A DNA stretch of 64,000 nucleotides from a virus. The notes beneath the pieces were generated by a model. That model saw only the letters and a program-made list of their open reading frames with translations, was not told where the DNA came from and made no database searches. Position numbers and translations under genes: made by a program. Where the stretch lies: the IMG/VR virus record IMGVR_UViG_3300050343_000199, positions 96,001-160,000 of that record; one strand, given 5' to 3'. This document shows positions 9,107 through 35,856 of the stretch, in pieces (within the stretch, counting starts at the first letter, position 1; the number at the start of each line of letters is the position of its first letter).

Positions 9107-9718
9107 TTAGTTTGTAACTAAAGAATGCAACCACCCTGTAGCAATATATTTAATTTCGCTTTTGGGTGGGTATCCACGATGAAAAAAAGTCCAACATGCC
9201 GGAAAAATGATCATTCTTCCAGTCTTGGGTTGAATTTTTGTACCATCAATAAATTCTGTGTAACCATCTTCTACGATATCATTAAGATACCATATAAACG
9301 TTAACAGGCGAACACCACTATTTTCAATTTCAGACTTAATTGTATTAAAGTCACTATGCCAAGTATATCCAGAATTAGGATTAGTTCTTTGTATTTGATA
9401 CCCAGAATCTTTCATTTCATTTAGCAAGATTTCAATAGTATCTTTATTAGTGCGTTCTTTAATGATCTCACTATTTACATAATTTCTTAAATGCTCAGTA
9501 AGAGTTTTACAAAATACATCATCTTCATATTTCCAATCGGAAAGAGAAGAAATTTGTAGATCGGTAGAATCTTTTACTTCTTTGTTAATATAACCATGAC
9601 CAATATGACCTTCAAATTTACGCTCGTCTGCTTCAAATTTTTCAATACATGTTTTACAGAAATGCTCACTTAAGGCATTATCTGCACAGTATATAAATTC
9701 TGAATACTGAAAAGACAT
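9107..9718 (-). CDS. 2OG-Fe(II) oxygenase (prolyl-4-hydroxylase-like)
   Basis: YTWHSD (HxD), RLLTFIWYLND, GYTEF, FPACWTFFHRG and KYIATGW motifs. Confidence 0.9.
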   Translation of the reverse strand: MSFQYSEFIYCADNALSEHFCKTCIEKFEADERKFEGHIGHGYINKEVKDSTDLQISSLSDWKYEDDVFCKTLTEHLRNYVNSEIIKERTNKDTIEILLNEMKDSGYQIQRTNPNSGYTWHSDFNTIKSEIENSGVRLLTFIWYLNDIVEDGYTEFIDGTKIQPKTGRMIIFPACWTFFHRGYPPKSEIKYIATGWLHSLVTN

Positions 9719-9734
9719 AATACGAAGACATAAG

Positions 9735-9940
9735 GAAGGGGCATCTCACCCCTCAGAACTACTTGGTTAACAAGGCTAGTTTAACCCCGATCTCCCATTC
9801 AGGCAGTCGCGAGTTCGCGAGTGCGGGAGAATGCAACGATATTATTCGCTGCGGTGTCAGATGTTTTTGCATCTATGGTTTGCTTATCCAAGCAGGTTTC
9901 AGTAACACTCCTTATACCCCGTCTAAACCATGGCACCCCC
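9735..9940 (-). ncRNA. ssrA: tmRNA, piece carrying the 5' acceptor strand and the tag reading frame
   Basis: Starts GGGGGTG-CCATGGTTTAGAC (tmRNA-type 5' end); tag frame 9849-9799 = ANNIVAFSRTRELATA*, resembling cyanobacterial ANNIV..FSR..A tags; 3' boundary approximate (hairpin 9737-9753). Confidence 0.88.
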
Positions 9941-9945
9941 AGGAG

Positions 9946-10027
9946 TGGGCAGAGTTGGATTTGAACCAACGTAGGCAGAGCCAGAAGATTTACAGTCTTC
10001 CTCCTTTAACCACTCGGACATCTACCC
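9946..10027 (-). tRNA. trnY: tRNA-Tyr (GTA), located inside the tmRNA intervening segment
   Basis: GGGTAGA/TCTGCCC stem, anticodon arm GAAGA-CTGTAAA-TCTTC, long variable arm, TTCAAAT T-loop. Confidence 0.95.
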
Positions 10028-10029
10028 AA

Positions 10030-10080
10030 TGGAGGTGAGGGGAATTGAACCCCTGTCCGAAATACCGGTGGTGTCACCTA
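10030..10080 (-). ncRNA. ssrA: tmRNA, piece carrying the helix-2 3' strand, T-arm and 3' acceptor strand (permuted, upstream)
   Basis: GGAC-AGGGG-TTCAATT-CCCCT-CACCTCC-A; CACCTCC pairs with GGGGGTG at 9940-9934, giving G3:U70 and discriminator A; GGTGACAC pairs with GTGTTACT of the other piece. Confidence 0.88.
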
Positions 10081-10096
10081 TTCCACAAAAGTGGAA

Positions 10097-10169
10097 AGCC
10101 AAACACAGGACTTGAACCTGCGACCTGATCTTTACAAAAGACCTGCTCTACCAGCTGAGCTAGTTTGGC
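10097..10169 (-). tRNA. trnT: tRNA-Thr (TGT)
   Basis: GCCAAAC/GTTTGGC stem; anticodon loop TTTGTAA. Confidence 0.95.
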
Positions 10170-35185: not shown

Positions 35186-35328
35186 TGAACACCTCGTAAC
35201 ATAGAACACATAATAAAGTGAGGGCGTGGGTTCATTGGTTCTCCTCTAATTCTACCACTATTTAATAGAATTATATTGAAATCAACACCTGTTGTAAAGA
35301 ATATTATTGCCTACTAGTTTATACTCAT

Positions 35329-35355
35329 AAAAAAAGAGAGGGGTTAACCCTCTCC
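35329..35355 (-). terminator. Terminator downstream of the DUF4278-like gene
   Basis: GGAGAGGG-TTAA-CCCCTCTCT followed by T-tract. Confidence 0.75.
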
Positions 35356-35369
35356 CTAAAGTAAGTTGT

Positions 35370-35537
35370 TCACTTGGTGTAAAGTTTACCACGATAACAG
35401 AATGTACCATGGGTCTCTTTGGATTCTACACAACGTGTATTATACTCAACACCACGATATGAGGTGTGAGTAATTTGTGCGTCGTGAAGTGCAGATGCTT
35501 TGTTGATCTGCTTACGAATCAGATTAAGTGTGTTCAT
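35370..35537 (-). CDS. DUF4278-like small protein (55 aa)
   Basis: Read manually: MNTLNLIRKQINKASALHDAQITHTSYRGVEY...FCYRGKLYTK*; two YRG..Y motifs; AGGAG SD. Confidence 0.8.
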   Translation of the reverse strand: MNTLNLIRKQINKASALHDAQITHTSYRGVEYNTRCVESKETHGTFCYRGKLYTK

Positions 35538-35569
35538 TGTAGTTACTCCTAAAGTAGTTGGAATTTAAT

Positions 35570-35753
35570 CCGTTCCTTTAGTCGTTTGCGTCCCATGGAT
35601 AGCAATCGGGGGTTGATTCCTTCATAACTTCAATCAATTCCACCTTCATTTCAGGAGGAATATTCTCATTTGTTTTCATCCGAAACATAATTGAATCGGC
35701 TTGAGCACATGAGAGTGTTGTATAGAATAATAATTCTAGCATGGGATGAACGG
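35570..35753 (-). ncRNA. Glutamine riboswitch (glnA-type) aptamer 2 with ~140-nt expanded P2 loop
   Basis: CCGTTC-A-TCCCATG...CATGGGA-CGCAAACGACTAAA-GGAACGG. Confidence 0.75.
35578..35742 (-). CDS. 54-aa ORF nested in the riboswitch P2 loop
   Basis: Read manually: MLELLFYTTLSCAQADSIMFRMKTNENIPPEMKVELIEVMKESTPDCYPWDAND*. Confidence 0.7.
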   Translation of the reverse strand: MLELLFYTTLSCAQADSIMFRMKTNENIPPEMKVELIEVMKESTPDCYPWDAND

Positions 35754-35755
35754 CT

Positions 35756-35802
35756 CCGTTCCGCGACTTACTTGCGTCCCACCCAAGAGTGGGATGAACG
35801 AT
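35756..35802 (-). ncRNA. Glutamine riboswitch (glnA-type) aptamer 1
   Basis: ATCGTTC-A-TCCCAC-TCTTGG-GTGGGA-CGCAAGTAAGTCGC-GGAACG; begins at the predicted TSS. Confidence 0.8.
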
Positions 35803-35808
35803 GGTATT

Positions 35809-35837
35809 AGTATACCATACTATGTATATGATGTCAA
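35809..35837 (-). promoter_or_regulatory. Sigma70 promoter driving the riboswitch transcript
   Basis: TTGACA-17 nt-TATACT; +1 falls at ~35802. Confidence 0.9.
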
Positions 35838-35856
35838 CTGTATCTGTTGATACTGT

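Follow-up and report, generated by a model that had tools for sequence, protein, structure and literature searches.

Riboswitch aptamers are usually treated as compact non-coding domains. One of the closest described systems is the glutamine-I riboswitch of the Synechocystis gene gifB, which encodes IF17; in this leader, glutamine was proposed to release an inhibitory pairing at the ribosome-binding site, and an ON switch was demonstrated (PMC6212724). Tandem glutamine riboswitches are known as well: a survey counted 157 doublets and 4 triplets and regarded them as independent, pseudo-cooperative units (Sherlock et al. 2022, PMC9481103), and glutamine doublets are listed as independent tandems in PMC2864571 too. 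Here we describe a glutamine-riboswitch-type leader in a stretch of 64,000 nucleotides (nt) of viral DNA (positions 96,001 to 160,000 of IMG/VR record IMGVR_UViG_3300050343_000199), hereafter called the window. The record, of 192,818 bp, comes from a T4-like cyanomyovirus, and the leader with its promoter, genes and terminator is encoded on the minus strand. Positions 35837-35325 are a single compact transcription unit, consisting of promoter, riboswitch leader, an open reading frame (ORF) nested in the leader, a DUF4278-like gene and terminator. The leader is probably an outer canonical glnA-type aptamer, which carries in its P3 loop an inner junction lacking an E-loop; the P2 stem of this inner junction closes around a real gene, and a platform that would sequester the Shine-Dalgarno (SD) sequence follows.

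Outer junction and the common P3 helix

An earlier reading made from the letters of the window (the sequence-only reading) had placed a glutamine-riboswitch-type leader directly at the promoter, and this proved right. The first half of the motif ("aptamer 1", 35802-35753) matches RF01739 with 29.1 bits (E 4e-4 in an 801-nt search), which is below the gathering score of 35, while the second half lies beyond the reach of the model. RF01704 gives 25 bits on the same half against a cut-off of 33, with non-canonical pairs in its hairpin. At gathering thresholds, Rfam returned no glutamine riboswitch in the whole window, and RF01739 returned nothing above its cut-off over the whole 192.8-kb phage record, because an ORF-bearing insert of 183 nt pushes the full motif out of range; the motif itself is not absent.

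The outer junction has the RF01739 features P1 (CGUUC/GAACG), P2, J2/3 and the J3/1 E-loop, and P3 is present as a long-range helix, not as a hairpin. The 5' strand of P1 (CGUUC, 35796-35800) is invariant and pairs with 35575-35571 in the nested alignment, which is preferred by Rfam in ORF-less relatives; it is followed, after an A, by the P2 hairpin (35777-35794), which has U-A and C-G as closing pairs and in which all six counted pairs change on both sides, and by J2/3 (CGCAAGUA, 35769-35776), which matches the RF01739 consensus CGGAAGUA and holds the AGUA strand of the E-loop. P3, common to both junctions, is formed by AGUCG (35764-35768) and CGACU (35580-35584), and the final U of its 3' strand opens the stop codon (35580-35578) of the nested ORF. 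The "loop" of this P3 measures 183 nt and encloses the second junction and the whole gene. Beyond it, J3/1 (AAAG, 35579-35576), which is the other E-loop strand, the P1 3' strand (GAACG, 35575-35571) and G35570 match together (35570-35579) the consensus GAAGGAACG. The outer aptamer would then be composed of the P1 5' strand, P2 and J2/3 of "aptamer 1" and of J3/1 and the P1 3' strand of "aptamer 2", and the leader of this early-type cyanophage transcript would be a double glutamine-riboswitch core, with one core folded inside the other.

For comparison, 11 isolate loci and 120 viral loci sharing the middle of the motif were fetched, and 207 loci were parsed on invariant anchors; the same arrangement is found in 418 phage records and 308 viral contigs. 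The sequence-only reading had proposed two tandem aptamers in contact through AGTCG (35768-35764) and its complement CGACT (35584-35580). The two cores and the pairing are confirmed, the pairing being covariant (27 unique strand combinations in the 207 loci, all complementary, such as AGUCG/CGACU, AAUCG/CGAUU, AUUCG/CGAAU and AGUCA/UGACU), but the cores are not self-contained and the pairing is their sole P3. There is no P3 hairpin in either half, the upstream half is devoid of J3/1 and the downstream half of the AGUA part of J2/3; neither aptamer is therefore structurally complete alone, as independent tandem units would be. Judged from these alignments, the two cores are not independent tandems, and AGUCG/CGACU is the only P3 of the pair. 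The helix occurs in 5-, 6- and 8-bp classes with matching strand lengths. In the 8-nt class, the strands contain two symmetric A.C mismatches, and a change from U to A at the end of the upstream strand is accompanied by a change from A to U at the start of the downstream strand. An Infernal alignment of P-RSM6 suggested, for the same class, that each core forms its own AG/CU mini-hairpin as P3; this was rejected, because the end positions covary between the strands and not within one.

Five ORF-less relatives exceed the RF01739 threshold of 35 with 38.4-43.6 bits, but solely in alignments that span the motif between its outermost P1 strands and put 38-46 nt in the P3 loop. In an alignment of 88 sequences, the proposed pairs of the nested fold are 95.5% paired, compared with 32-56% in slid controls, and 13 pairs show changes on both sides, compared with 6.0 in shuffles, none of 500 shuffles reaching this number. 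The inner junction begins with a P1 hairpin (GAACG, a 4-nt loop and CGUUC, 35748-35762) with ViennaRNA pair probabilities of 0.96-0.99, whose linker is 3-4 nt long in nearly all loci (rare exceptions have 5-6 nt). Its J2/3 (CGCAAA, 35585-35590), conserved as CGCA-N-A in nearly all of the 207 loci, is short and lacks AGUA, and its J3/1 is a single C, so the E-loop of RF01739 is absent from this junction.

The P1 strands occur twice each (35800-35796, 35761-35757, 35752-35748 and 35575-35571), all four invariant in the 88 sequences, and identical strands permit a second connectivity. The aptamers could stand side by side, with local P1 helices (35800-35796/35761-35757 and 35752-35748/35575-35571), AGUCG/CGACU as a pseudoknotted bridge and the ORF in the second P2 loop, an arrangement that would resemble the glutamine-II (Downstream-peptide) class. 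"Aptamer 1" does match both RF01739 and RF01704 on its own, as scored above, its local P1 partner is transcribed about 200 nt before the distal one, the constrained folds are close in energy (-67.5 kcal/mol side by side vs -68.5 kcal/mol nested, ViennaRNA), and surveys treat glutamine doublets as independent tandems (PMC9481103). We nevertheless regard this alternative as unlikely: each of its units would be an incomplete junction, whereas nesting yields one canonical aptamer; the RF01739 threshold is passed in the nested alignment only; and the two middle P1 strands are separated by the short linker expected of a hairpin loop. The type-1 structure reported in PMC11477058 contacts its ligand through J2/3 bases and through G23-C60, a linchpin pair that involves the base following P1. 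In the phage, the J2/3 position that is G in the cyanobacterial RF01739 consensus is C, and G instead of C follows P1; by analogy, G35570 is a candidate partner of the J2/3 cytosine C35774, and the reported contacts would be compatible with the phage C...G variant. The linchpin bases are invariant in the data set, so covariation there gives no distinction between nested and side-by-side pairing.

A single glutamine-type core with a nested ORF, lacking an upstream partner core, was observed at 507-740 of the locus of Synechococcus phage S-B43 (L087). CGACU is kept in this locus with no AGUCG partner upstream, one AGUCG lies inside the ORF, and the ORF has a signal-peptide-like N-terminus.

Expression platform and the DUF4278-like gene

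In the putative expression platform (35546-35581), which the sequence-only reading had overlooked, CUAAAG (35581-35576) can pair with CUUUAG (35554-35549), the latter overlapping the SD sequence AGGAG (35550-35546). This anti-SD helix is paired in 99.8% of cells in the 88 sequences; its third pair is G-C in 43, A-U in 29 and G-U in 16 of them and is never unpaired, and no A.C combination occurs in any parsed locus. The anti-SD strand consists of the last two P3 bases and J3/1, i.e. J3/1 is both half of the E-loop and part of the anti-SD strand, and the helix competes with P3/J3-1. In the ligand-free ensemble of ViennaRNA, inner P1, inner P2 and the anti-SD helix have probabilities of ~0.83-1.0 (anti-SD about 1.0), and the nested ON fold is less stable than the minimum-free-energy fold by 7.1 kcal/mol.

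Since the anti-SD helix takes the exact strand needed by the ligand-bound aptamer, as in gifB, the arrangement suggests a glutamine-ON translational switch for the DUF4278-like gene. When glutamine is lacking, the anti-SD helix would prevail and the gene would be poorly translated; when glutamine is bound, P1, the E-loop and P3 would be stabilised, the SD sequence freed and translation turned on, as in the gifB (IF17) riboswitch. The same fold could in principle serve another output, namely an OFF switch, or control exerted mainly on the nested ORF or on RNA stability. The direction of the switch is taken from analogy, the J2/3 cytosine departs from the cyanobacterial consensus, and translation of the nested ORF necessarily disrupts P3. 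Competition for the strand of the ligand-bound aptamer is, however, the classic ON geometry and matches gifB (PMC6212724), and the J2/3 variant comes together with G after P1, by which the linchpin pair could be preserved. Another output is accordingly rated as quite improbable.

The DUF4278-like gene (35370-35537, 55 codons) matches PHROG 545 with E 4e-35 over residues 1-55. The DUF4278 group was linked to IF17, an inactivating factor of glutamine synthetase (GS) (Klahn et al. 2018, PMC6212724). That a DUF4278-like ORF follows the leader had been expected from the sequence-only reading; a 55-codon ORF of the DUF4278 group is indeed present, but with Pfam DUF4278 (PF14105) its protein obtains 21.1 bits (E 4e-4) and stays under the cut-off, which is 25.3. 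In other cyanophages, the genes occupying this position reach 20-28.6 bits, those of P-RSM6 and ACG-2014b being above the cut-off (27.5 and 28.6). Judged from these scores, the assignment of the copy in the window is reasonable but marginal. Its homologues, 724 metagenomic "hypothetical" proteins, have neither Pfam labels nor informative names. Many of the database entries (P0001, P0004 and others) have 75-89 residues instead of 55, apparently because gene prediction carried their frame on upstream, into the riboswitch.

Two further observations concern the region ahead of this gene. The start of the gene (AUGAAC, 35532-35537) is complementary to GUUCAU of the P1 5' strands (35794-35799 and 35746-35751), and the pairing is present in the ViennaRNA minimum-energy fold; both sides are invariant or coding, so covariation is uninformative, and the predicted pairing could be a second way of hiding the start codon, or chance. 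An extra module of ~45 nt lies between riboswitch and SD sequence in loci L010 (about 1170-1225), L011, L026, L039, L086, L159, L165, L181 and L193. It consists of ACGGAUC, a covarying GNRA-type hairpin and then AGAAGGUU, resembles the 3' half of a glnA-type aptamer and is absent from the window.

The gene within the inner P2 stem

"Aptamer 2" is split into a 5' half (CGUUC-A-UCCCAUG, 35752-35740) and a 3' half (CAUGGGA-CGCAAA-CGACU-AAAG-GAACG, 35597-35571), between which lies most of an ORF of 54 codons (35578-35742). The 5' strand of inner P2 (UCCCAUG, 35740-35746) pairs with 35597-35591 and holds the start codon of this ORF (35742-35740). The 3' strand (CAUGGGA, 35591-35597) at the same time represents the codons P-W-D, and the last codons W-D-A-N-D-stop run through the P2 3' strand, inner J2/3 and P3. 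This agrees with the sequence-only reading, which had recognised P1 and P2 of "aptamer 2" with a 54-codon ORF in the P2 loop, the ATG within the 5' strand of P2 and W-D-A-N-D-stop as its 3' strand and core. In the 88-sequence alignment, five of the seven pairs of inner P2 have changes on both sides. The 43 unique strand combinations are 84.7% paired, compared with 71.7% after shuffling (none of 2000 shuffles reached the observed value), and the first four pairs are always standard in these combinations.

A long inner P2 insert (138-195 nt) is present in 169 of the 207 loci, and every one of the 169 contains an ORF of 49-69 codons. The AUG lies 3-5 nt into the inner stem in all but one of these loci, and in 162 of them the stop codon begins with the last U of P3 and takes its other two bases, both purines, from the beginning of J3/1. 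The outer P2 is long in 33 of the parsed loci and in each of them holds an ORF of 59-75 codons, whose stop codon is usually located in the 3' strand of the stem; all three stop codons occur there, each matched by a complementary 5' strand. When inner and outer long inserts are taken together (169 + 33), the AUG is located 3-6 nt inside the stem, with two loci as exceptions. In 38 loci, e.g. in phage ACG-2014f, a short hairpin of the usual kind stands in place of the inner ORF, and in loci of the S-CAM3 type the ORF ends 15 nt ahead of the P2 3' strand, yet the strand and the core are kept.

The nested protein matches PHROG 504 over its full length (residues 1-54, E 6e-29). Variability by codon position, expressed as entropy, is 0.53/0.30/0.69, and no internal stop occurs in 56 unique coding sequences of the length class of the window. 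Among 91 nested proteins, C12 and C47 are invariant while mean column identity is 35%, and the terminal D-A-x-D is dictated by the RNA core. AlphaFold2 predicted three helices with a mean predicted local distance difference test score (pLDDT) of 84.8. The nested family has homologues in the proteins encoded within outer P2 stems of other phages: an hhalign comparison, made after removal of two bridging sequences, gave 91.9% and E 7e-7 with both cysteines aligned. The nested protein has no Pfam match, only unnamed clusters in the ESM Atlas, and no Foldseek match in the PDB with E < 3. The sequence-only reading had suggested two peptides that may tune host GS activity; for the nested protein this is not supported, as it has no DUF4278 or IF-like features.

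It might be argued that the nested ORF is untranslated and that the insert of ~150 nt is a structured spacer or remnant with an incidental frame. A conserved, well-spaced SD sequence is lacking, the stem that holds the start codon is stable (pair probabilities 0.83-0.99), and the protein is without known function or structural relative. The presence of an ORF in every long insert with a nearly fixed AUG offset, the codon-position signal, the absence of internal stops, the two invariant cysteines at low overall identity, the confident helical prediction and the homologous family in the other P2 loop of other phages make this explanation very improbable. Hardly credible, and the weakest of all, is the proposal that the ORF-flanking halves are kept for coding or translation initiation, with no RNA helix and "aptamer 1" as the only riboswitch: the 3' half does code for W-D-A-N-D-stop in the window and the 5' half directly precedes the start codon, but the non-coding parts, CGUUCA ahead of the stem and AAGGAACGG behind the stop, do not vary and agree with the riboswitch consensus, the stem pairs change on both sides (C-G to U-A, U-A to C-G), the residue before the terminal D-A-x-D (W, Q or K) shifts in step with the 5' strand, and coding constraint alone was rejected as the cause of 3'-half conservation by the S-CAM3-type and ORF-less loci.

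Because the nested AUG lies in the 5' strand of P2, the folded sensor hides this start codon. A ribosome finishing the nested ORF unwinds inner J2/3 and P3 and sits on J3/1, so that sensor folding and nested translation would be mutually exclusive. Translation of the nested ORF would in this way compete with sensor folding and may on its own melt the anti-SD helix, and termination on J3/1 could transiently free the downstream ribosome-binding site. As a tentative extension, in which we have less than even confidence, the RNA may compute with two inputs, glutamine and ribosome traffic. Ribosomes loading on the nascent RNA before the distal strands exist would keep the sensor unfolded, and their termination on the anti-SD strand would open the downstream ribosome-binding site; once ribosomes are cleared, glutamine would lock the double junction, silence the nested gene and keep the IF17-like gene on. 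The cyanomyoviruses may have copied this unit, a sensor core with a gene for a paralogous Cys-pair protein in P2, lost it and acquired it again, in one core or the other; the unit may also lie under an NtcA-type box, by which the phage would read the nitrogen status of its host in three layers.

Several points weigh against the nested, gene-enclosing riboswitch favoured here. Covariation is silent on outer/inner versus side-by-side (1-1/2-2) pairing, with P3 as a pseudoknot in the latter, because the P1 strands are invariant, and when tertiary or ligand energy is left out, P3 and outer P1 have a probability of ~0 under the nearest-neighbour model. The inner junction, with no E-loop and a 1-nt J3/1, may not bind a ligand at all. 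As for the two genes, a well-placed SD sequence is lacking ahead of the nested ORF (the GGAG found 11 nt upstream is not kept among relatives), and the DUF4278 match of the window is below the Pfam cut-off. A ribosome terminating on the anti-SD strand could switch the downstream gene on regardless of glutamine and blur the logic. Moreover, no nested or ORF-bearing glutamine aptamer was found in the literature searched, and an earlier description is possible in Ames and Breaker 2011 and Ren et al. 2015.

Transcription unit and comparison with known systems

A sigma70-type promoter (35837-35809) precedes the leader, with TTGACA (35837-35832), a 17-nt spacer and TATACT (35814-35809). It has 11 of 12 consensus matches and an extended TG, which confirms the promoter that the sequence-only reading had placed at "aptamer 1"; P1 begins at 35800, and the transcript start predicted from the promoter position is about 35803-35801, i.e. 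1-3 nt ahead of P1. Among 156 unique upstream contexts of related loci, 100 have the same promoter form, ending 7-9 nt ahead of P1. The motif GTA-N8-TAC, a match to the NtcA-box consensus, is located at 35840-35853 and ends 2 nt ahead of the -35 hexamer. Of 167 unique upstream contexts of related loci, 96 contain this motif, compared with 5.5 in shuffles (maximum 11); it is enriched at the N8 spacing only and is fixed in position. NtcA sites have been reported in cyanomyoviruses, without a link to this operon (Sullivan et al. 2010, PMC3037559). The unit is closed by an intrinsic terminator (35325-35357), a 10-bp stem followed by a T run.

A 7-bp inverted repeat surrounds the -10 box (35801-35818), directly ahead of P1. 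A palindrome is kept at this position in relatives with differing sequences, and in some relatives (L017, L030, L070 and L085) the -10 box lies further upstream and a GNRA-looped hairpin stands ahead of P1; the repeat may act as an operator in the DNA or as a hairpin at the 5' end of the RNA. The window also carries PhotoRC-II and wcaG RNAs, a tRNA cluster and a permuted transfer-messenger RNA (tmRNA), with thyX nearby. The two-piece tmRNA (9708-10119, minus strand; cyano_tmRNA 134 bits) encodes, according to ARAGORN, a tag peptide of 23 residues; the segment separating its two pieces contains a complete tRNA-Tyr gene (9945-10027), and tRNA-Thr (10097-10169) overlaps the 5' end of the tmRNA. 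In the locus of cyanophage P-RSM6 (L089), a manA RNA (1156-1341, 188 bits) is located just downstream of the riboswitch operon.

In the cyanophage literature searched, the riboswitch is mentioned in passing only. A scan of genome contigs with a loosened pattern gave, among the matches listed, mostly chance hits and two plausible ones, on short contigs that may be phage DNA, and is uninformative for cellular genomes. The ORF-bearing insert accounts for the under-reporting of cyanophage glutamine riboswitches by standard Rfam scans.

The phage leader resembles the gifB leader (RF01739) in P1 (CGUUC/GAACG), the P2 hairpin, J2/3 with AGUA, P3, a GAAG-type J3/1, the inhibitory pairing at the ribosome-binding site and the DUF4278-family gene downstream. 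Unlike glutamine-I riboswitches, it builds P3 from strands 183 nt apart, which enclose a second junction and a gene, and not from a hairpin; it also has C for G in J2/3 and G for C after P1, scores below the gathering score, and is found in a phage and not in a cyanobacterium. As in the published doublets, there are two glutamine-type cores per leader, and the ORF-less relatives (e.g. phage ACG-2014f, L081) would be counted as such. The difference is that one covarying P3 is common to both cores, which are thus hard to read as independent units with an expression platform each, and that a gene occupies one P2 loop; the phage glutamine doublets share one P3 and are best read as an aptamer nested in an aptamer, which departs from the view of independent tandems. 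With glutamine-II (RF01704), known from marine picocyanobacteria, the leader shares the CGC-type J2/3, the G after the P1 3' strand and short DUF4278-like genes, while its score falls short of the cut-off, the pseudoknot hairpin of that class is absent and a type-1 E-loop is present.

The downstream protein resembles IF7/IF17 (gifA/gifB) and IF17-like proteins in having two YRG-type DUF4278 repeats and in its riboswitch control. It differs from IF17 in its length of 55 residues, in falling below the Pfam cut-off and in lacking the C-terminal part, which is needed for GS binding in Synechocystis and is absent from Prochlorococcus IF17-like proteins too (PMC6212724). The phage operon, with an IF17-like protein and a Cys-pair mini-protein, probably reads, and may manipulate, host nitrogen status while globally abundant Synechococcus is infected.

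Group I and group II introns carry homing endonuclease or maturase ORFs in peripheral loops, and they resemble the phage leader in that a protein gene lies in the loop of a structured functional RNA and a closing helix surrounds it. Intron ORFs are genes of mobile elements in catalytic RNA, with start and stop codons outside the conserved core. In the phage leader, by contrast, the closing stem includes the start codon, and the stop codon falls within the riboswitch junction that senses the ligand. To our knowledge, the upstream ORFs of other riboswitch leaders belong to the expression platform, which follows the aptamer, and are not enclosed by one of the aptamer's own helices. A preprint on M. 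tuberculosis (10.1101/2022.06.01.494293) describes upstream ORFs that are translated from riboswitch leaders; a small ORF in such a leader ties ribosome traffic to downstream expression, as may also be the case here. The cyanophage leader adds to these systems an aptamer helix that surrounds an entire and conserved protein-coding gene, whose start and stop codons are part of the sensor, and it would represent a natural system in which ligand sensing and translation physically exclude each other on one RNA.

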